The notes under the pieces: model-generated
What the model saw: the letters and a program-made list of their open reading frames with translations, nothing else
What the model was told of the DNA's origin: nothing
Databases searched by the model: none
Shown here: in pieces, positions 3,133 to 42,958 of the stretch
Numbering within the stretch: position 1 is the stretch's first letter
Layout of the letters: the number at the start of each line of letters is the position of its first letter
Made by a program: the position numbers and the translations under genes
Origin: Mustelus asterias
Lineage: Eukaryota
Reading direction: 5' to 3'
Length of the DNA: 64,000 bases
Assembly (NCBI RefSeq): GCF_964213995.1
Contig: NW_027590140.1
Span: 930,001 to 994,000 of the forward strand

Positions 3133-3571
3133 ATGCAGCTACTCAGCATACGTTGTGTGGGACGCATTCCTTACAGGTTATTGCGGACCAAGCATACTTC
3201 ACCTTTTCTCTAATTTTCCACGCATGGATTAAATCAGATTTTAATCCGCTGCCCGTTTTATGTTTTTAATTCTAATATAACTTTTCAGATCAGGCTCATG
3301 GAGAGTTTGCCATTCAGCCTCTATCATCAGACGTAAAGACAGATGGGGACGCGGTGACATTGACGTGTAACTATGAAACTACTGAAACTGATTATGCATT
3401 ACACTGGAGCCAACAATACCCGGGTGCATAGCTCGAATTATGAGTATAAAGCAGACTTTACGAAAAACCGTTTCTATGCCGAGCTAAAAAACGCTATTAA
3501 ATTCACCAGTGTAACGATCTCGGGCCTGTAACTCACTGACGCTGCTCTATATTACTGTGCTTTGTAAGTGT
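3133..3571 (+). pseudogene. TCR alpha/delta-type V pseudogene (degenerate leader about 3133-3176, V exon 3289-3571)
   Basis: Reads ...DGDAVTLTCNYETTETDYALHWSQQYPGA*... NRFYAEL...LTDAALYYCAL*, with several stops and an internal deletion. Paralogue of the V at 144. Confidence 0.85.
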
Positions 3572-3610
3572 CACAATGATGAAAAGTAATCTTACCCCTG
3601 TCCAAAAGCT
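3572..3610 (+). other. 23-spacer RSS
   Basis: cacaatg + 23 nt + ccaaaagct. Confidence 0.75.
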
Positions 3611-14857: not shown

Positions 14858-15525
14858 ATAGGAATCCTCCTTGTTTTTGCCCTGTGTGTCTATTTAGCCC
14901 ATGAGTACCGATCAAAATAACCAACATTGTGTGGGTGGAAACTAAAGCTCTCCAGTCCATCCCAATTATAGACGCTGTCTGGGCCCCATTGTGTGGTTTG
15001 GTTCTGGTGGTCCATTAAACTCTCTGTGTTTAATTTTCAGGATCTTTCAGTCAGTCAGTGATACAGAGCCCGGCAGCGGTGACCAGGAAGGAGTGTCAGT
15101 CTCTCACCATCACCTGCATTTTCCATGGTATCGTTATAACTTCGGAAATGGACACTTCTTCGGACAAACTCAGACCGGGACAGGGTGGGAACGGATCTCC
15201 AGGGGAGGGACATTTGTTGTGTCTGTGAATAAAGCAGAAGAGGCATTTTCATTGGAAATTCAGGATGTGAAAATTGTACACACCGCCACCTATGATTGGA
15301 ATGATTGATTGCATTTGCAAACGGTCACAAAAGATGTGCCCCTTTTCAAGACAGCTGGAAACAGGAACCAATGTAGTTGTTGTTTAACTCAAGACCCCAC
15401 AATCCCAGCAGTTCCCAATGGTAGGTGCAAGGGTGGTGCAGAATTTATACTGACTTGTAGCACTGTGTTACTCGGATATTCACAGCGGGAGAGACCTTAG
15501 CAAAGCTCAGTAGTGGTACAACACA
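14858..15525 (+). pseudogene. NAR-TCR-like (IgNAR-type) V pseudogene: leader 14858-14900, V exon 15041-15525 with a 202-bp insertion
   Basis: Paralogue of the V at 27716. ATG->ATA, donor GT->AT, frameshift after ITCIFHG, and insertion in the YYC Cys codon (15299-15500). The FR1 Cys (KECQSL) is kept. Confidence 0.88.
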
Positions 15526-15564
15526 CAAAGTGATGCGTCTCAGCTTCCCGCTATAACAAAACAC
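15526..15564 (+). other. Degenerate 23-spacer RSS of the NAR-type V pseudogene
   Basis: caaagtg + 23 nt + acaaaacac. Confidence 0.65.
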
Positions 15565-16292
15565 TCACTGCAGATTCTCACAGAAACAAATTAAAGAGAG
15601 AATTGAATCTGCCCTGTAACACATACACTTCCGAACCAAACCGTCTGTTCCGCACTCTAGTTCAGAACGAGACTGAATTATTACTGTTAACATCCCAAGT
15701 TTTATAAATGCCGAGTGTGTGCGGATGGTGTGATCATTCCCGGGATTGGTTTCAGTGAATGGAGATAGGGAATGATTGATTGCATTTGCAAACGGTCACA
15801 AAAGATCTGACCCTGGTCTAAAACAGCTGGAAACAGGAACCACAGTAGCTGTTGTTCAACTCAAGACCCCACAATCCCAGCAGGTACCCAATGGTAAGCG
15901 CGAGGATGTGGCGGAATTTATACTGACTTGAAGCACTGTTACTGGGATATTCACAGTGGGAGAGACCTCAAGCAAATTTGAATAAAAATTAAATAACAAT
16001 TCTCCGGGCCGGATAGTGAATAATTGGGCTCATGTTAGTATCGCTGTTACTGGTTTCATGCCGTTTAATTCCAACCACTCATAGCTTTCTTTGTCATATA
16101 TTTTTTTCGATTTATATGAGGCGAATGTTTCCCATCTGGGGTTATTCACGAAGAGCTCAGGGCATAACAAAGAACAGTTGGAACCAAAGGAGACTTCGAA
16201 ACGTTGAATATTGTTTATTTATTTAAACCCCCCGAGTAAATGTATCGTTCTGACTGTATGGTGGAAATTGTTTGGCAGTTTGAATTGTCGCT

Positions 16293-16371
16293 GGTTCTTG
16301 TACGGAGCGGTGTCACTGTGGTACTATTATGATCCAAGATGGATCCGGGACGGAGGTGACAGTCACAGCCG
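16293..16371 (+). other. NAR-TCR-like J segment (16321-16371) with a 12-spacer RSS (16293-16320)
   Basis: ggttcttgt + 12 nt + cactgtg, then TIMIQDGSGTEVTVTA+G|gtaagt. Confidence 0.88.
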
Positions 16372-17520
16372 GTAAGTGACTCCAAACACCGCCGTGTTCC
16401 GGATTCTCCCGGTTCATGTTCACAGTCAGATTATTATTGGAATCTGAATCACTTCAATTCCATTGGAACCAAAACGAAACTGCTTCCTGCGGAATCTTTT
16501 CCATTGCAGATTTCGATTTCGGCGCAGGATACGTTTCTGGAGACGGGCCCAGTTCTGTCCTAGGAAACGCTTATGTGTCGCCTGACGGAATAGGGTCGGT
16601 GTAGTGGGAGATGGGGGTGGGTATTGGCGTTGGTTGACAGCATCTGGACCATTGTTGGTTTAACGTGCAGATGTGGGATACAAACATTGACATGGGCTTT
16701 CACATATTTAATCGCTTTTACTGAGCAGATTGTCGACACTCAAGACTCCACTATTCGTGTTAACTGCAAGGGAAGGCACTGAGAAATCTCTGAGAAATAC
16801 TGCGTGCATTGGTGATCATTTTCCAAAATTCGATTGACTCTGGAGCAGTTCCTACAGATTTAAGGGAGGGAGAGAGAAAAGGAATAATTACAGAGCATTT
16901 AGCCTGACATCAGTGGCGGGGAAGATACAGGTCTATTATAAAAGTCGTGAAAACAGAACATTTGAAAAGAATTAACGTAATTGGAAAAAAAACATGGAAC
17001 TATGAGAGGCAAGTCATGCTTAGCAAATCTCCTGGAGTTTTCTGGACGATGGAACTTGTAAAATAGAAAGGGAGAACGAGTAGATGTAGTGTAGATGCAG
17101 TTTCAGAAGCTTTTGATAAGATCTGCTAAAGAGGTTAGTGGACAAATTTAAAGTATATGTGAGAAGTGGTACTGTATTGGCATGGGTAGAGAGTTGGTTG
17201 ATGGACGGGAAACAGAGAGTGGGAATAAATGTGTGTTTTTCTGAGTGGCAGGCAGCGAATTTTGGGATACCGCACGGACCAGTGGTTGGAGCAAAACATA
17301 AACATGATCTGGATGAGGGGAACAAAAGTAAAACTTCCAAATTTGTTGACGACACAAAAATTGGTGGAATTGTGAGTTGTGTGAAGGATGGAATGAAGTT
17401 TCAAAGAGATTTAAACAACATGAGGGAATTGCCAAACACATGGCTAAATGTGAAGTTATACCACTCAGTGTCAAAAAAGAGGAAAAGTATTATTTGAACG
17501 ATGATATTGGGAGGAATGGA

Positions 17521-19735: not shown

Positions 19736-22502
19736 CCCTGTTAGAAGGATGAGAGAAGATCTGATTGAAACGTATAGCATTCATAGAGTGCTGGACAGCT
19801 TAGATGCAGGAAGGATATTTTCCCCGGTTGGGACCTCGAGAAGCAGGGGGTGCAGTATCAGGATATGGGATCCTGATTTAGGACCGAGTTGAGAAAAATT
19901 TTCTTCACTCCAAGGGTCGTGTACCTCCAGAAATCAGCTACTACAGAAGGCTGTGGAGGAAAAAGTCACTTAATGTATTGTAGAAGGAAATCGATTTTTC
20001 TTTTTAGATTTTAATGACACCAAGGGTTTTTGGAAAAGGAAGAATATGGCACTGAGGTCCTGGATCAGCCATGACCGCATTGAATGGAAGTGCAGGCTCG
20101 AAGCAAGGCAGCAGATTCGCCAAGCTCACGCCTGGGCAGCAGTTTGTAATCCGAGTAATGCAATTTGAAAGAGGTATGGGTGAATAACCTGAACACGACT
20201 GCGGCCATTTTGGGTAACAACAGCCGCTACTTCAATACGTGACCCAGATCAAACCTGACACAACAGGCTTCAGATTCATAAATATTCGGAAACTTGTGGT
20301 TGAAATTAGTGAGATTTTACCAGTCATGTATTTAAATCTTCTTCACATAACCAATCGCTTTGCTCTTTTTATTCGCTGTCAGACCGATATGTGAAAGCTT
20401 GGAACTGAATACATTCCTCTATATTGAGTGTAAATGTTTGAGATGAGGGATTGCTGTAATTATGTATATCGCTGATTGCTGTTAAGTGAAACAACACAGT
20501 GCTGTTCGAGTCTTAGGAAGATGCCTTAATCCTATGAAGCGAAGCGCGAACATGAATGAACAATTATAAACGGGGAGAATGTTTACTTAAAAGCAGCAAT
20601 AAATAATTGTTGCAAAAGGGGAGAACGATTGAATGATCTGCATTCACACCTGGGTAATGCGCGAGGCTGAGCAGAACATACCTCAAATGAGCCCCAATGT
20701 GCAAAGTTTTAGTCTATAAATTAAGTCAGGCTCGACATGATGTGAAGGGACTGCAATTAATGTTCACCAGATTCATTCCTGAAATGGTGGGCATTCCCTG
20801 AAGATAGGAGTCTGTATCGAATGGTCACAGTTACATAACATGTGGATCAGACATTAGGGATAAGAGGAAAATACCTTTCTTCAGTCAAAAGATTGTTATA
20901 AATCTGTGGCACACAATATCTCACAGATATTGGACACTCAGTTGTTGAGTGTATTCAAGGCAGTGCGCGATGGATTAATGGATACTGTAAGGTCACGGTG
21001 TGGGAATGTGATGTTCAAGTAAGAGATCAGCCACAATACTGCTGGGTGAGGAGCAGGTATTAATGTTTGTGTGGACACCCCTGCTTGTTGTCAGCTTTGA
21101 TAATTTACATGTCTGAGGAAATATATCAGCAATTATCCATGTCTCTCTGGAGCGGTTGAACTCGTTGGGTGCCTTTTCTGTGGAAAACAAAAACCCATGA
21201 GGGGAATTCACAGAATATCTTTTAAATTATGAACAGGTTCAAGTTATGAACGGGTTTTGCACGTGGCGAAATTATTTATTTCTGGGTGAATGTAGAGCAA
21301 TAGGCCATCAATATGTGATCCTGACTATCAGAAAAATATAGATATTCAGAAAAATAAATTTAAACCAAGACACGTAAGAATCTGTAATTTGATGCCAATG
21401 AGAGAATTTGGAGCAGAAAATATTGATATATTCGTGGGAAGTCCTGGTAATACAGGAAGAGGGTAAAATAGATTGACAAATGGTGGAATGTCTTTCGGAT
21501 CGAGAGATTGTCCTGGACTAGGTACACAGCCATATACCAGGTGGGTCAAATGGTCTGTTCCTCTTATACCGTTTCTGTAGCATGTAAACTGGGAGACAAC
21601 TCTGCACAGAGAATCCGGTGGAAAATTAGTTAATGGGCAAAAATAATTGAAATTGTCAGGGAGCCGGAAGAGGCAGTTCCCAGTGAGTAGCTGTAAAACC
21701 ACTGTGAACAGACTGAACACAACCAACAAGTGAAAGGCTTTGGGACAAGTTCCCACGTTTGCAAGAAACCCAAAGGAAATGCCAAATTAAATAAATTGAA
21801 TAAATTAATCATTTCAAATTGGAGAGACAGGAGAAATTTGGATATAATTGAAAACGAGGCAGAAAGAGCAAAAACAGATATAAACTGCCGGAAAATGTTA
21901 AAATGAAATAAATGTTTGACACTTGAACACTGATGTTCATCAATTGGTGCTGATGAACCTACCTGCTTTATTTTGCGTCTTGCTGCGCGCACCAATAAAA
22001 CGCAGTTGGCTTGCTCTCAATGAATCATTTTTGGAAACTGATCACCTCACTGACTTTGTGTTCCTTCGAGTTTGTCTCTCACCAAGGAAATAAGAAATAG
22101 TAACGGAATAATATCATACAATCATACTGTTGGGAAGGAAGATATTCGGCCCCTCGGGTAGGTGCTGTCACTTTAAATGTGCAAGCCAAGAGTTCCCACG
22201 CCACCTATACTTTCCCCCATAGCCCGACAGCTTTCGCTGTTGTAACACAACTCCATTATAGGTTTGACAGTTACAAAAAAAATCTGTTTCCACAACCAAT
22301 TCTGACCTTGATTTCCAGATCGGAAACATTCGCTATGCAAATTGATAATACCACTTTATTCCCCATTTCGTCATATTTGATATTTCAATCATAGTGAATC
22401 TGGTTCGATCAGGCTTGAAGTCAGGGAAAAAAAAGGTATGTTCACTCAATGGTCAATTTCAGTGAGGAAAACAAACAAATAATGTTCATCCTTCCCTTCC
22501 AG

Positions 22503-22807
22503 CTTCCAGCTCCCTCACGTCCTAGAGTCTGGCGCTCCAAATCTCTGTTGCCGGTGAGACGGTTACTTTGCGTGTGAATATTCAGGAATCTGTCAGTACA
22601 CAGTACACTGGTACAGTCAATACCCAGGGCAGGCTCCGAAATATCTGCTTCAGACACACACTTCAGGAGGGGACAATGAAGAAAAGACTGCCGGGGGGAG
22701 AATTTCTGCTTCCGTCGATTCTGCCGAGACAATCACCCAGTTAAAGATCTCCAAACTACAACTGAGCGACTCCGCTCTGTATTACTGTGCACTGACTCGG
22801 CGCACAG
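22503..22807 (+). pseudogene. Supporting TCR Vdelta pseudogene (partner of the plus-strand NAR-TCR cassette)
   Basis: Acceptor cccttccag|CT, a stop and frameshift in FR1, then CEYSGICQYTVHWYSQYPGQAPKYLLQTHTSG...LQLSDSALYYCALTR. No leader exon seen. Confidence 0.88.
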
Positions 22808-22907
22808 CATAATGACACAGAAGAAGTAGAGAGCTGTATAAAAACATATACATGGTGAGGATTACAGACACCGTCTTGCAGAACACGGAGAGAGCTGTAC
22901 AACAACC
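22808..22907 (+). other. Tandem pair of 23-RSS (22808-22846 and 22869-22907)
   Basis: cataatg-23-ataaaaaca and caccgtc-23-acaacaacc, with a 61-bp period. Confidence 0.7.
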
Positions 22908-23362: not shown

Positions 23363-23462
23363 GGTTTCTGTGCACCTCTCTCCGTGTTCTGTATCACTGT
23401 GTCTGCAATCCTCACCATGTTCAGGTTTCTGTACAGCTCTCTCCGTGTTCTGTGTCATTGTG
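23363..23462 (-). other. Tandem pair of 23-RSS (23462-23424 and 23401-23363)
   Basis: cacaatg-23-acagaaacc and cacagtg-23-acagaaacc, with a 61-bp period. Confidence 0.88.
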
Positions 23463-23768
23463 CTGTCAGACGACTCACTGCACAGTAATAAACAGCGGAG
23501 TCGCTCAGTTGTAGTTTGGTGATCTCTAACCGGCTGAATTTGACTGAAGAACGCATATAAACAGAAATTCTGCCCCCGGCAGCGTTTTCGTTACTCTCCT
23601 CTCCTGATGTGTGTGTCTGAAGCATGTATTTCGGAGCCTGTCCTGGGGACTGACGATACCAGTGTACTGTGTACTGACAAATTCCTGAATATTCACAGAT
23701 TAGAGTAACCGTGTCATCTGCAGCACAGGTTTGGGGCAGTGAACTTGGTGACACAGATGAGCTGGAAT
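23463..23768 (-). CDS. Supporting TCR Vdelta segment of the NAR-TCR cassette, open frame
   Basis: Acceptor tcctgcag|AT is in phase with the J donor at 26794. Reads SSSSVSPSSLPQTCAADDTVTLICEYSGICQYTVHWYRQSPGQAPKY...LQLSDSAVYYCAVSRLT, with the CDR1 Cys typical of NAR-TCR supporting V. Confidence 0.9.
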
Positions 23769-23910
23769 CTGCAGGATAGAAATAAAATGGATTGTTTTTT
23801 TGTTAGCCACTGTCGGCATTCTGTGAATTTGTTTCAAATTGCATTGATTATTGGAAATGGACAAGCGTAGCAGATCTTCAGTTTTTATTTTCACCGATAA
23901 TAGCACTCAC

Positions 23911-26793: not shown

Positions 26794-26846
26794 CGGCTGT
26801 GACAGTCAGCACCGTCCCAGACCCATCTGCAAATCTCCATTCTCCC
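26794..26846 (-). CDS. NAR-TCR-like J segment
   Basis: GEWRFADGSGTVLTVTA+G|gtaagt. Confidence 0.9.
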
Positions 26847-26885
26847 CACAGTGACACCGCTCTCAGTCAGCCCAATACAAGAATG
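26847..26885 (-). other. 23-spacer RSS of the J segment
   Basis: Reading away from J: cacagtg + 23 nt + acaagaatg. Confidence 0.8.
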
Positions 26886-27213: not shown

Positions 27214-27241
27214 GGTATTTGTCCTTCTCCATTCCATTGTG
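27214..27241 (-). other. 12-spacer RSS at the end of the NAR-type V
   Basis: cacaatg + gaatggagaagg (12 nt) + acaaatacc. Confidence 0.8.
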
Positions 27242-27716
27242 GTGTCCTCTGTGTGTAGTACCAGTACTGAGCTTTACAGTAATAGGTGGCAGTGTCTTCA
27301 ACTCTCATGTCCTGAATTTCCATTGAAAATGTCTTTTCTCCTTTATTCACAGACACAACAAATCTCCCTCCGCTGGAGATCTGCTCCCGCTCTGTCCCGG
27401 TCTGGGTTTGTCTGAAAAAATGACCAGTTTCTAAATCATAAACTCCATGTAAAACACAGGTGATGGTGAGAGACTGACACTCCTCCCTGGTCACGGCTGT
27501 CGGACTCTGTGTCACTGACTGACTGAACGATCCTGGAAATTAAACACAGAGAGTTTAATAGACCATCGGAGCTGAACCACACAACTATAGTGTGACAGTG
27601 TCTGTAAGGGGGGTGGACTGGGGCAGCTTTATATTCAATCCACACAATGTAGTTTGATGTGGTCGGTACTCACGCGATAAATAGACACACACAGTGAAAA
27701 CAAGGAGGACTCTCAT
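27242..27716 (-). CDS. NAR-TCR-like (IgNAR-type) V gene, intact: leader 27716-27674, V exon 27532-27242
   Basis: MRVLLVFTVCVYLS+C|gtgagt, then tttccag|GA. Reads SQSVTQSPTAVTREECQSLTITCVLHGVYDLETGHFFRQTQTGTEREQISSGGRFVVSVNKGEKTFSMEIQDMRVEDTATYYCKAQYWYYTQRT. Shows the IgNAR-like deleted CDR2 region and an extra FR1 Cys. TATA (tatataaa) lies about 25 bp upstream. Confidence 0.9.
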
Positions 27717-29582
27717 TGCTCTGCTGCCTGGAGCTGATGGTTTATATAGCGGGGAGCTGGAGACTGCAGTGCTGGACTGCTCTGGGAGACCGGATCGCAG
27801 AGATGAATTGAAATACTTCAGATCCGAACATCGGCAAATTAGGCCACGCCCACAGTTTAAAATAAAAGTCAAGGATTGTAATGGGGAATCCAGTTCTGAA
27901 CTTTCAGTCGAAATTCCAGGCAGCGAGAGCCCAAAAGCTCATCAGGTGACCAACAGTTGTGCTTGAAATGCTCTACTTGGTCTCGAGTACATTATTTATG
28001 TTTTTTAATTCAGGCGATGCGAGCAGAAATTACCAATCTCTAATTTATCTTCATTAGGTGGAGGTGAACTGCCTTCTTGAACGGTTGCAGTCTCTGTCGT
28101 GTATGTACACCCACAGCGCGATAGGGAGGGAATTCTAGAATATTTACAGAGACCGAGGGACAGTGAAGGAACGGAGGAAATGCCCGAGTCTGCATAATGG
28201 CTGTGTTAGCGTTTCTTTCTAGATTGCAGCTGTTTTGTGTTTGAAATGTAGCGCCTAAGGAGGCTTAGTGAGTTCCCGTAGATTAGAATATCATGAAAAT
28301 GGTATACACGGCTGCCACTGTGCATCGGTGGTGGAGGGAGTGAATACTTGTAGAAGAGCTACCAGTCAAACAGGGCTGCTATGGCCTGGATGAGACTTCC
28401 TGCAAATTGGAATCTCATTGTGCGATGTCGGAAACACCTCCTTTGTCTCAGAAAGAAGGGGAACTTCACTGGAGGCGCATCCTGCTAATTTTACTTTTAT
28501 TCAGAGCAGCAAACTCAGTCTACACTCCTTATGAAAGAGAGGCAAATAACGGCTGGTCGGATCAACTAGACAGGCCCACTACACAGATATTTACTTGAAG
28601 GCAGCAGGATCTTTAGGGAGATTCTAACAGTTCGATTGTAGCTCGCCTTCTGGAACAGCTCAAAGTCGGAGAGGAATTCAATTCTGAGAGAACAGAAGTA
28701 TCCACGAATTTCGTGGTTTCCGTTTTGATTCTTCTTCTGAAGTTCGGTGAGTCGTTTAGCTCGCATTAGAATGAAGTTTTGTGTCTAACAATTGAATGAC
28801 GGTTGGATATAGAAACTGAAAGGAGCTAGGCGGCCATTATAGTGAATAAAAGAGCATGGATAGATGGATTGATGGACGGAGAGACAGTAGTATCGATGGA
28901 TGACGGAGGGATGCGCGTTTTGATTGTCCATTCACTTTGATTGCAGTGAAGTTTACAGCAACGTCCAGTAGTTAAACAATGAGTTATTGAAGGGAAAGAA
29001 GAATTGCATTGTGCTTCCAAAACGTTGAGGGTGTTCGTTCAAATTGCACTTTAAGAGAAAGATATAGACTTTTGCCCTCTATTGATAGGAAGTGTATAAA
29101 TACAAAAAGTTAAATGTTAAATTATCTTCATCGATAATCAGGCTTTGCTTGAAGTGTGTCAACCAAGAGAAGGAGAGGGTTAATGTTTCGAATCCATATG
29201 TCCTATCTATAGAATCTGAATAAAAGTCATATGGACCCATCGGTAATGTTAGGTCTATTTCTGTCTTCCCAGATGCTGCCAGACCTGCGGGGTTTAGCCA
29301 GCAAGTTTTGTTTGATATGTTGCTTGAAGCGCAAGCAGATTTCATGGTAACTATCAAAGAGGAAACTGGATGAATATTTGATGGAAATACATTTCCAGGG
29401 CGAGCGGAAAGAGCAGTGGGTACGGACAAATGGGAACTTTATCATCTGTCAGCACAGGCAAAATAGTCCGAATGTTCTCGTTCTTTGCTGTATAATTCAA
29501 TGCTTCTTTGTTGAGGAGAATGAATGCTTACTGAGATCCCCCACATTTAAACATATGTTTACTTTCTGGTTACCATTTGACG

Positions 29583-29929
29583 GACTATGTTATTCTGATA
29601 CTGTTAAGCAAACTGCACCGTCAGTATCATGCTTGGAGCAAGAACGCATGGTGTTGCCCTGCTCATGCTCCTTCGACAGCCGCCAATCTGACCTGCTCTG
29701 GTACCGACAAAAACCGAGGGAGAAGCCGGTATTTTTAATCAAAAGGAAATCGGAGGGAGAAGCAGAGAAAGCTGAGCGTGTGGGAGACCGATTTTCTTCA
29801 ACACTCCGAGTATCTGATCGTTTCTTCAGTTTAACCCTGACAGATATGCAGCTGAGTGACGGTGGTGTGTATTATTTTGCGCTGAACATTCACAGTGATA
29901 CAAACTGATACACGCGCCGAACATAAGCT
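29583..29929 (+). pseudogene. TCR V pseudogene with 23-RSS (29891-29929)
   Basis: DTVKQTAPSV...LPCSC...LLWYRQKP...DRFSSTL...LSDGGVYYFALN. The second canonical Cys is lost and there is no AG acceptor. RSS is cacagtg-23-acataagct. Confidence 0.85.
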
Positions 29930-30267
29930 ACCACTGGGTGACAGGGGTTCAGTTGGTAAACTCTGAACCTTCATCTCTGGCAGCAGCAGAATCAGATGTC
30001 GACCGTATTCTGCTGGGCGATTCTGATCGGAAATAAAGAGTTAATAGATGTAAAAAGGCAATTCTGAATGATTGAGTTCCTGACAAAATAGAGTGAGAGA
30101 AAGGCAAGGGAACATAAAAAGGAAGAGAGAACGGCAGCGAAAATAAAGGAGCAGAAGGCCGTGAGACACAAGGAGCTAGCGCGTTGGACGCAACAATTGA
30201 AGCAGAGAGCTCAAGAAAGACTGTCTGAGAGTTAGAATCAGGAAAAAAGAAAAGAAGAAAGTAAAAG

Positions 30268-38465: not shown

Positions 38466-40602
38466 TGTTGTGTTTGGTTATTTGACTTTTCAGTTCCACT
38501 TGATTCCTGATTTATTTCCATACTTATGTCAGGAGTACTTCTAACGAATTTAACTGCTTTTATTGATATTTAGAAGTAAGCTTATTTTGTCTGCATTTCT
38601 ATGCTTAACTTCATTCGATTTCATCGGTATGTTTTGTCCGTGCAGATGTGAACATTCTTTCTCAGCAACTGAAACGTTCACAGCTCACATTTGACATGAA
38701 TACCGGTGTGCCAATGATGATGAGTAAATGCCCACTGAACGTTCACAACATCCTGTGTAACGAGGGACGTTTTGAATGAATATGAGGGGTTAACAGGATC
38801 AATGTTTCTGCGAAACTATGAGTGAGATCTGATTTAATGACACCATGCTTCTAAATACTGCATTCAGGAGACCCAAAAATGCAGCCAGAAACTTATGAAT
38901 GTACACCGGAAAAATGAACTTTAAGAGTGTTTTTCTTTAATTGTTTCAGTGAGTCAGGTGTGCCTGGTCGTTACTTTGCTCGGCCATTTCAGGGGCAATC
39001 ACATTTCTGTGTGTCGACAGTTACATAATGGCCAGACCAGGTAAACATTTCCTTCCCTAAAGAATTTTAGTGTGGCAGGTTTTTTTGTGACAACCAATGT
39101 TATCATTACTGAGACTACTCTATTGTCAATGCAATATTGCTTCTAATAATTCGTTTAACTGATTAAGTTCCACCCGCTGTCATGGTGAGAATTGAACCTC
39201 TGTGCTGACATTATCAGCATGGAACTTTGAATTCCTGGGCTGGTGACTCTACAGCAACATCACCATGTTGCATAACTGCTACATTAAATGGAAATTGTTG
39301 ACTTGCATCCCATTAAACGTGCCCGCAGTATTCAGAGTCTTACTCTGGTACAATAACAAACCTGAATACTCTTGAGTAAAACAGCAGATCACCGAGGTAA
39401 TCCCAAGACCTCTGTTGCTTAAATCACTGAAGGGACGCTTTGACCTGTCGGTGCCGGTCACTTTCAGAGCTCAACTGTTTTGCATTGAATTTTACTGCTT
39501 TATGATGTACTGCAGCATCTCCATGATTGCTGGTCTCCATCTCATAGTCTGTTCTCACGGCTTTACAATAATTGCTCTTCAACTCCAAACACGAGCACAA
39601 AACTGGTCGTGATAACAAATAACAGCTGAAAATCTCGAGTTCAACGCTGCCATGTTCCCCATTTCTTAATAAGCATTTGTCACCAACAATTGTTCAGGTA
39701 TGCAAACCGCCAGATAAAACTCAGTTGAACTCATACATTTCATCAGGCTTTTTTTCTAGTTGGTATAACTGTGGTTTTCGCTTTCCTTCGTTCAAAGAAT
39801 TGAAACGAGGTCAATAAAACACCTTTTGCTCGAATGTGGATGAGCAGAAGATGGAGGAGAGAGCTTCAGCAGGTGAATGAGACAAATTAACTGAAAAGTG
39901 AAGGAAAGCGGTTTGGAGTCGAGTCAAATATTGCACGCTAGGAACTAGGGAGACTTTTGGAGGACTGAGCTCAAGTGCTGTCTTTGGATTGATACAGAAA
40001 CCCCAGTTTGGTGATTTAAAAACCCAGTGGCCACAGAGCCAGGCCGAGTCAGGCAATTGGCATTACTTGTGGCGAGTGAGAAACTGAAAAATATGTCTGC
40101 ATTTTGCACTGCTGAATTTACTATTTCTGCCAACAATGACAGACAGAGAAGGAAAGCTGAGTCCATCAAGCCTGTTCACAATCCAAATGATTTAAATGTG
40201 AAGTGCAGTCACCATCGCAATCCAGGAAAGAATCACCATGCGCATAGCAAAATGCCTGGTGATGTGATCATCTTTTGTAGCTTGGCGACTGAGGTTTAAA
40301 AATCTTGGAGAGCTGTCCTGCTTTAGAAACTAGTTAGGTGAAGTGTTTACAATGCTCCAGAAAGGCCAGGTGGAGCGTTCATTTAGTACTTTACCTGAGC
40401 AATTCACTGTGGATACGCTCCGACTCCATTCGCACTGCCAGTGTAAGTGGCAGCTGGAATGTGCGTTAAGGCCTCTGGAGGCAGACCTGAAACCACAACT
40501 TTCTGAATTACAGAAGATAGAATTGAGAAATGTAACAGTTAACAGAGAGCCGCGGATAGAACTTGAACTGGCGGCATCACCTGTGCCAGTTCTGTTTGGT
40601 GA

Positions 40603-40906
40603 GGTTTTTGTACAGTGAGAGATTAGTTTTAAATAGCTGTGTCTCTCAATACGCAGAAATAGACAGCAGTGTCTTGGATTTCTGCTCGAGCAATCGTTAA
40701 AGGAAAGTTATTTTCTGCATTAGTCTGACCGGCCTCGAATTTTCCCTTGGCGAAATCTGCGACTCTTCTGTCGTTGTGCTACCTGTACCAGTAGGGATCG
40801 GGGTTATTGTTGTTTGTTGTGAAGCTGCAGTCCATTTTCACGCTATCTCCTTTAGTGATACGCAGTTCAGTCTGTGGAGGAGACACAGAATCTGCTTGAA
40901 TCAGCC
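40603..40906 (-). pseudogene. TCR V pseudogene (V exon 40906-40642) with 23-RSS (40641-40603)
   Basis: DSVSPPQTELRITKGDSVKMDCSF...PYWYR* with an FR2/CDR2 deletion, then ...DFAKGKF...DTAVYFCVLR. RSS is cacagct-23-acaaaaacc. Confidence 0.88.
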
Positions 40907-42364
40907 CTGAAATAAAACATAAGGGAAGGTTTAATGCAACACTGAGTGGAAAATTCCACGAACATCACCCTATTGCAAACAAACAAGGAGTTATAGTTTT
41001 ACATACCAAACACCAGGCAAAGTATAACAAGATGACGAAACCACTTGAATTCCATCATTTCTTGGCCAGCAATCTCTTTGCATCAGATGTGTGGAGATAC
41101 AGATATATTTACTATTGTCATCTTTTAAGTTAAGCGGCTGTTGAACAGAAAGCAAAAACAGAAGGCGAGGAAGTATCTTGTGATTTTTTTCAAATACAAA
41201 GTAGCAATGCGAAAACTGGGTAGCAGCATGTTAACACGAGTAATGACTGGTCAGCTAGTTTCTCTACCTGCACCATCTGACAGCGTCACTGCTCTTGGCG
41301 GTATTGTATTTGGCAATTCACCCCACCCCTTCCCTCCACACACCACTTGTTCATTAAATATAACATTAAGGCATGTAATTTGTCATTGAGATTATTTTTC
41401 ATGGTGCCGAAAAAAGGAAAATGATGAATGAGAGAAATTGGGAGAGAGGAAGCAGACCTGAAATAGAGGGAAAATGCGAGAGAGAACAAGGCACAAATAA
41501 AAAAGAAAGGATGAATGATGCAAACCGAGGAGGAAATTATGTGCTGATTCTCATAGGATGCCATATATTTTTGTTTTGTTGTATCTATGCTCTAGTTAAC
41601 GGCGATTATTGCAAGACCACCATTTATTGTCCATCGCTAACCTGACATAACCACATTGTGGTCTCATCCTGAACTACGCCGGTGTGAATGGTGTAGATGC
41701 TCCCACGGTGTTATTTTGGAAGCACTTCAAGATTTTAAACGAGAGACAACAACAGGAACAGTTATTTATGCCGGAGGTAGGATTGGATATGATTTATGGA
41801 ATCACTGGATAAAACGACGCAGAATGAAGTTCTTTGGCCAAGTTGTTTGTACTTCAAGTCTGCAAGAGCTATCCCTTCAGGCCAGTTACATATTCTTTGC
41901 CCATGGACTTGCCCTTTTGTCCATTTCAAATCTGAAGCCAGCCACTTATTATTGTATCTGCTTCCGCCATTCTTTCAGGCAGGGTTTTGAAGGTCATAAA
42001 GACACACTTTGAAAATAACCATACGTTTCTCCACCATTTCTATTTACCGATTATATTTAATCAGTATCCTATAATTATCGACCCTGCTGCCGATGTAAAT
42101 AATTCTTCCTCCGACATTATATAAAACCCTTTCAAAATTCGGGCATCTCATTTAAAATTCAGCTCAAGTTCCTCTTTCCCAAGGGAACCAATCCAGTTTC
42201 TGTATTCACTCCGATTAACTGATGTCTAGAATCCTTGACAGCATTTTGTCAGAACAAAAATATGTGTTTTTTAATCATTTTATAAACAAGGGATTTTATT
42301 TTTCAAGAGTCTCCGGGTGGAAGACCACTTTTCTAATTTCTCCAGTTTTGTTGTGTTTTGACGA

Positions 42365-42402
42365 GGTTTTTGTACGGGTCACAGCTGGTTTGAAGCACCG
42401 TG
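42365..42402 (-). other. RSS with 22-bp spacer
   Basis: cacggtg + 22 nt + acaaaaacc. Confidence 0.85.
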
Positions 42403-42958
42403 ATCCTTAATCCGCAGAAATAGATGGCGCTGTCTTTAGTCTCCACTGCAGAAATTGACAAAGGGAAAACCTGATATTGACTGAAATGACGAGCATCGAA
42501 TTTTCCTTTGACAAACTCGGCATCCTTGCGCCTGGTGTTATCCCGGTACAATATGAACTGGAGTGGCTGCTTCGGGTAGAGCCGGTACCAGTAGCGATCC
42601 GGATCAACAGAACTGGAGTTGTAATAACAGCTCAATTCCAGATTAGTTCCATCAGCTACCTTCAACTCACGTTGACTCTGTGTTACCGAACTCCCTTGGA
42701 AATTACCTGCAAAATAACATGCAAAACATTTAGGTAACCCCCTTATTGATGACAAGCATCCCCCTCTCTCCTCTTTCACAATGAGGGAAATCAATCACAA
42801 TCTAACTATCACCTATGGATTATTTATACCAGAAGAAGGAATACATTTCAGTATTTAGATAGTACAGGGGGCAGAATGACAATTCATATCAACAAGTGTT
42901 TCACATCTTCCAATTTACCGAATAGAAATGAGATCACGAGAAATTTAACTGGTGTCAT
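42403..42958 (-). CDS. Apparently functional TCR alpha/delta-type V gene: leader 42958-42919, V exon 42706-42403
   Basis: MTPVKFLVISFLF+G|gtaaat, then ttttgcag|GT. Reads SSVTQSQRELKVADGTNLELSCYY...YWYRLYPKQPLQFILYRD...KDSAIYFCGLR. CRE-like tgacgtaa upstream (about 43174-43181). Confidence 0.88.

Follow-up and report, generated by a model that had tools for sequence, protein, structure and literature searches.

Two NAR-TCR cassettes of the shark Mustelus asterias: a J signal that probably changed from a 23 to a 12 spacer, beside a probable germline VD join

The window analysed here is a stretch of 64,000 nucleotides from Mustelus asterias, and it contains two inverted paralogous cassettes of V, D and J segments, one on each strand, whose features are collected in Table 1. 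The V regions of the two cassettes are 79% alike, the J regions 73% (over 230 nt) and the supporting V segments 81%. NAR-TCR is a doubly rearranging TCR-delta of cartilaginous fishes and, in the parts of PMC1845163 available to us, it is characterised by a VNAR-like V that has a leader and an a-b loop cysteine and lacks the WYRK tryptophan, by its own V-D-J unit and by a leaderless supporting V-delta with a CDR1 cysteine. The same features recur here. The minus cassette has a leader that begins MRVLL, an a-b loop cysteine (EECQSL) and HFFRQ without the WYRK tryptophan; its V is a V-set domain, all of its top 20 PDB matches are VNAR domains, with a best E of 2e-20, and bamboo-shark proteins are among its database relatives (5 matches). 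A V-delta with a CDR1 cysteine (SGICQY) and an open frame lies 3 kb after the minus J, at 23770–23463 on the minus strand, with a splice acceptor directly 5' of the exon; its leaderless state was judged by reading the sequence. On such features both cassettes are best read as shark NAR-TCR V-D-J units, which agrees with the first-pass annotation of this DNA. They differ from the published NAR-TCR in that in one lineage the J has a 12 spacer and the D signals have decayed, and in that another, large lineage has V and D apparently fused in the germline. A metagenome scan for a NAR-TCR J at any spacer length gave no matches, and one with the V protein gave a single weak match (32%), which looks unrelated. 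The window holds further TCR V segments or 22/23-RSSs at 29560–29930, 37964, 40600–42500, 54957 and 3538–3610, some of them open (42434, minus) and some broken.

Table 1. Features of the two NAR-TCR cassettes, in window coordinates
Feature	Position	Strand	State
Plus leader exon, dead	14858–14900	+	start codon ATA, splice donor AT
Plus NAR-TCR V exon, 5' part	15041–15298	+	CDR1 frameshift near 15129; interrupted at YYC motif
203-bp duplicate of D region inside V	15299–15501	+	D 15468–15480 flanked by CACTGTG and CACAGCG
Plus V 3' end and V RSS	15502–15563	+	in-frame TAG; CAAAGTG 15526–15532, 22-nt spacer, decayed nonamer
Plus D, normal place	15913–15990	+	5' 12-RSS decayed; D 15941–15951; 3' heptamer 15952–15958 intact; old nonamer decayed
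Plus J RSS, 12-nt spacer apparently derived	16293–16320	+	nonamer 16293–16301, spacer 16302–16313, heptamer 16314–16320
Plus NAR-TCR J	16321–16371	+	frame open, end DGSGTEVTVTA, GT donor
Supporting V-delta, plus cassette	22490–22845	+	5' frameshift, RSS decayed, pseudogene
Supporting leaderless V-delta, minus cassette	23363–23770	-	open frame, CDR1 cysteine, two tandem 23-RSSs
Minus NAR-TCR J with 23-RSS of apparently ancestral class	26794–26885	-	J 26846–26794; nonamer ACAAGAATG
12-RSS behind minus V	27214–27241	-	homolog of family D 3' RSS; no converted V RSS
VD exon, very probably germline-joined	27242–27532	-	frame open; D-derived tail ~27250–27242
Minus leader exon	27674–27716	-	ATG and GT donor intact, in frame with V

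The first-pass annotation had called a 12 spacer for the plus J and a 23 spacer for the minus J, and both can be read directly from the window: GGTTCTTGT is followed by a 12-nt spacer and CACTGTG in the plus J piece (16293–16371), and CATTCTTGT by a 23-nt spacer and CACTGTG in the minus RSS (26885–26847). The spacers are homologous, as had also been supposed. Both RSSs contain the 16-mer GAGCGGTGTCACTGTG, which occurs twice in the 64-kb window against 0.01 expected, and their surroundings are alike over the 230 nt given above.

Searches of the species' own genome gave at least 60 cassette loci among the matches listed; one, L060, has no J in its stretch and is excluded from the J counts. The spacer lengths of the other 59 loci among these matches are not random: the J spacer is 23 nt in 42, 22 nt in 9 (together 51/59) and 12 nt in 5, and 3 loci are without a J RSS because D has been joined to J. 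At least 15 unjoined cassettes read V-22/23, 12-D-12, 22/23-J, with an open V frame in 15/15; one unjoined cassette, L013, has a non-AG acceptor. The baseline NAR-TCR plan is IgH-like, V22/23-12D12-22/23J. A lineage with a 22-nt spacer on V and J alike is formed by L014–L019, L021, L022 and L024, and six of its nine members have a non-consensus J heptamer, CACACTG or CACTGTG when read toward the RSS. Behind many unjoined NAR-TCR cassettes, at ~23–33 kb, we also found a 12-D-23 D-delta (L078–L087; 14 matches, the D seen in 8 of the 10 loci read), suggesting from sequence repeated NAR-V-D-J / V-delta / D-delta units.

The minus cassette is without the 400 nt that separate V from D, both facing RSSs included, and its V runs into a D-like tail. 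Like a coding joint, this junction keeps the V coding end and has lost the V heptamer together with the D 5' RSS. The 12-RSS behind it (CACAATG, ACAAATACC) stands 432 nt before the J motif, and unjoined D 3' RSSs of similar sequence stand at 412–423. What the first-pass annotation took for a V12 facing a J23 is thus very probably a germline-joined VD in an otherwise IgH-like cassette, whose 12-RSS belongs to the 3' side of the D and which still needs one VD-to-J23 join; the cassette merely appears reversed because its V and D are already fused. The same junction is common to 34 loci among the matches listed (open V frame in 25/34), and in 15 of them the leader and the acceptor are sound as well. 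A degenerate pattern for the junction, which by design skips six CACAATG copies, had 28 exact matches and none in the control. Diverged as they are, and spread over many contigs, these 34 listed copies with one junction point to a join that is inherited rather than somatic. RAG likely made it, judging from where its breakpoints lie, at the end of the V coding sequence and within the D, and from the analogy to shark Ig. This old clade has no close unjoined sibling against which RAG marks such as P bases or trimming could be read, and the CAC retained at its junction may also be heptamer bases; fresh joints of the same kind are seen in two near-identical sibling pairs (L022 vs L024, L020 vs L013). 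Reading CACAGAG as a minus V RSS with a 24 spacer was rejected, since most copies of the clade have CACATGG or CACATAG there. Joined-VD cassettes mostly lie in convergent inverted pairs 8–11 kb apart, typically one intact and one of decayed type, as does the pair in the window (contigs C71, C87, C88, C90, C115, C153, C157, C160, C444, C447, C786 and C2349 of genome G000).

The history of the J spacer was followed in three trees, built from the D-J flank, J and downstream DNA (47 distinct rows, with L020, L023 and L030 excluded), from V and leader (48 rows) and from the flanks only, with RSS and J removed (22 chosen rows). The copies with a 12-spacer J, or J12, form one clade in all three, and the first and third set this clade apart from the minus lineage. 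The trees have no outgroup, and J12 is called derived because all other lineages have 22 or 23. The best single-deletion fits to the 12 spacer are a loss of 11 nt from 23 or of 10 nt from 22, each with two substitutions and with several equally good breakpoints; parsimony favours 11 nt, since the 22-type seems to have lost its 1 nt separately. On alignment, then, the change from 23 to 12 appears to be a real and derived spacer deletion of 10–11 nt, and we infer a single 11-nt deletion out of a 23 spacer. Of the RSS-class switch proposed earlier, the change in the J is upheld, and the idea of a switched pair in opposite polarity is not, given the D homology and the tree. The 'exact 11-bp indel' is not confirmed: 11 nt, although the most parsimonious length, needs two substitutions, would be 10 nt from a 22-type spacer and has ambiguous breakpoints. 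The first-pass annotation had also taken the figure of exactly 11 as a mark of selection before pseudogenisation. Flank indels from seven paralog pairs, which are non-independent and include one locus twice, amount to 64 gaps per 816 substitutions, and 6/64 are 10–12 nt long. RSS spacers tolerate +/-1 nt, and a neutral deletion to 12 +/- 1 would have a chance of ~1% on the J12 branch and of ~10% over the family tree. The length is thus mildly unusual and no proof of selection, though an earlier working phase is plausible. A 12-to-23 duplication of the D 5' spacer in the plus lineage was considered too and dismissed, as by eye there is no usable nonamer at such a spacing.

The plus cassette itself is damaged at many points. 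It was said to be without a D; it has one with RSS remnants in the normal place and a copy inside the V (15440–15501), and on the 3' side of the normal D a candidate nonamer ATAAAAATT stands at 23 spacing (15982–15990). Nor does a V23 match its J12, as had been claimed: the V is a pseudogene, its spacer in the family register is 22 and its heptamer is CAAAGTG. RAG requires CAC in the heptamer. J12 is found in exactly five places of the genome, all of them pseudogenes (open V in 0/5) with the same CDR1 frameshift and YYC break; in two of the five the ATG leader is preserved, but the V end is gone and the J heptamer is mutated. An intact V, a V 22/23-RSS with CAC and a J12 are combined in one unit in 0/5 copies of the species' own genome.

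Sequencing runs X3, X5, X8 and X18 were compared with the plus cassette, and X5, X8 and X18 come from three other organisms. The J RSS is covered in one of these three, X8, from another shark species; X5 and X18 have no cover over 16241–16307. One X8 contig aligns without a gap on 16291–16561, with 17 differences in 271, and its J is read as having a 12 spacer because of this gapless alignment, whereas ends get clipped elsewhere. In a second, a single T links 15298 to 15502, which restores Cys-Lys-Ala and leaves the V uninterrupted; this contig has the family nonamer ACTAAAACT at 22 behind the V, while 4 of its 12 differences over 15502–15600 are unlisted and may include the TAG codon and the third position of the heptamer. 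A third contig is longer by one base within 15090–15183 and fits an in-frame CDR1, the position of the gap being inferred. The pieces are separate contigs, tied together by similar depth (11.7–18.7) and by lineage-specific features. Because X8 differs from the window by 6–13% and shares J12 without the two V lesions, J12 should be older than the species split and the V lesions of the window later. Constraint counting on the D 5' RSS of X8 excludes the family nonamer and is still compatible with a near-consensus one.

We propose that two unrelated changes stand side by side on one IgH-like NAR-TCR plan, a VD fusion in the minus lineage and a J spacer loss in the plus lineage. With 10–11 bases lost from its spacer, the J12 would have been at once a legal 12/23 partner for the intact V22; V-to-D joins would have become dead ends in such a cassette, leaving the D signals free to decay, and the outcome would have been a working V-to-J cassette that skips its D and was later pseudogenised in the genome of the window. 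To such a once-working, D-skipping V-J phase we give a probability of roughly 0.55. The plus lineage carries changes at 6/18 positions of its two D nonamers and at 0/16 of its J heptamer and nonamer (Fisher p 0.02, on a by-eye, post hoc tally), and this decay fits D-skipping because V-to-D joins become dead ends. Against D-skipping, both D heptamers were intact in the ancestor of the plus lineage, where ~5% would be expected at 0.22 changes per site, and it leaves this unaccounted for; moreover, all five J12 copies of the species' own genome are broken, and the X8 pieces are unlinked and add up to no whole intact J12 cassette. The minus VD may instead have stood beside a cassette already dead or unused, in whose J the deletion fell and left 12 by chance. 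The closed V of all five J12 copies, the broken supporting V-delta, the share of 10–12-nt indels in the flanks and the ~10% chance across the family all suit this account, which we nevertheless think rather unlikely: the X8 pieces share J12, keep the family V nonamer and lack the two window V lesions, and it is the D nonamers that decayed while the J signal stayed intact. The working, D-skipping cassette therefore seems somewhat more probable than a chance deletion in a dead gene.

The intact D heptamers would be explained if the plus lineage had been rebuilt on a TCR-delta-like plan, V22-12D23-12J, with the D still in use and a new nonamer at 22/23 taking over as part of its 3' signal. ATAAAAATT would serve, lying 23 nt (three copies) or 22 nt (two copies) behind the intact D 3' heptamer and scoring 7.6 bits, within the 5.7–13.5 of the family nonamers, where 0.13% of window positions reach 6; these bits come from a rough family matrix trained on hand-picked nonamers and are distinct from a RIC score. 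Its flank, however, is A+T-rich, the D 5' nonamer has only 2.8–3.6 bits, and in X8 losses of 2 nt and 1 nt bring the D 3' spacing to 20 unless an unlisted insertion offsets them, so that we regard the rebuilt plan as improbable. Hardly credible is the model of the first-pass annotation, a single RSS-class switch seen in two D-less paralogs, one V23/J12 and the other, of opposite polarity, V12/J23. The J spacers are indeed homologous and 11 nt apart, and at face value each cassette shows a 12 and a 22/23; D sequence is present in both, however, what was called V12 is the 3' RSS of the D, the plus V has the CAAAGTG heptamer noted above, and forcing J12 and the minus subclade into one clade is rejected (119 log-likelihood units worse, p-AU 1e-31, in the 22-row flank tree). 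Returning to the spacer deletion, the wider statement that a plain 11-base loss turned a NAR-TCR J from 23 to 12 and gave a working cassette, either V-J (light-chain-like) or 12D23-12J (TCR-delta-like), that is intact in another shark is one that we make tentatively and at less than even odds.

It has long been asked why the RSS classes of V, D and J segments differ from locus to locus. In print we found RAG hybrid-joint swapping as a mechanism, described for the germline IgH of the horned shark in the portions of PMC2193153 that we had. The outcome there is the same, a segment that acquires the other RSS class over evolution, but here the heptamer, the nonamer and both flanks are homologous and in place, and spacer bases alone were lost. 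Because of this no RAG swap or inversion is needed for J12, and a hybrid joint was rejected as its origin: the J nonamer, the upstream flank and the heptamer-side spacer bases all stay J-type. If our reading is true, RSS classes could also change by a second route, the loss of about one helical turn from a spacer with a legal 12/23 pair as the result, and J12 would be a dated natural case of it without a RAG hybrid joint, in a TCR family whose members RAG goes on joining in the germline. Should the J12 lineage never have functioned, it would be an ordinary pseudogene next to a joined VD.

The NAR-TCR family also displays germline pre-joining in a T-cell receptor gene. Germline-joined Ig clusters of sharks (VD-J type IgH, NS4 light chains) are described in the parts of PMC2193156 and PMC2193153 at hand. 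There too joined copies coexist with unjoined ones, and the junctions are trimmed, may contain P bases and have few N bases; here, by contrast, the gene is a T-cell receptor cassette and one VD-to-J join is still required. TCR-mu likewise has two-V chains in which one V domain is already joined or lacks a D; there, according to the sections of PMC3457774 available, the supporting V is germline-joined in marsupials and without a D in the platypus. That mammalian locus is convergent, and it is the supporting V that is affected there and the outer NAR V here. In our literature search neither a NAR-TCR J with a 12 spacer nor joined NAR-TCR cassettes turned up, nor did any case of a spacer deletion that altered the RSS class, a result that is not firm, the founding NAR-TCR paper and two later ones lying outside its scope; the accessible parts of PMC12227049, PMC5985310 and PMC2275272 held nothing bearing on the J spacer deletion.

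Four further independent joins were seen in the genome: a V-D join in L022, with an intact V, one possible P base and a D trimmed by 7, and three D-J joins (L020, L023, L030). Two joins have 99%-identical unjoined siblings and show no N bases. L010/L065 (G000:C122, ~393166–398928) differs from the unrearranged copy L011/L074, to which it is otherwise 99.5% identical, by a 5.8-kb inversion, one edge of which is a perfect signal joint between a NAR D 3' 12-RSS and a supporting V-delta 23-RSS and the other a coding joint that was trimmed by one base and gained no N bases. Tandem 23-RSSs follow the supporting V-delta, two in the window (23363–23462, minus) and four in L010. Two more perfect signal joints, L081 (G000:C110:113669–113730) and L079 (G000:C71:14376776–14376850), each ~28 kb behind near-identical NAR cassettes, involve the same D-delta 5' 12-RSS, whose partner is a NAR V 22-RSS in one joint and the 23-RSS of a conventional V in the other; they may have been made by RAG in the germline or reflect lymphocyte DNA that entered the assembly.
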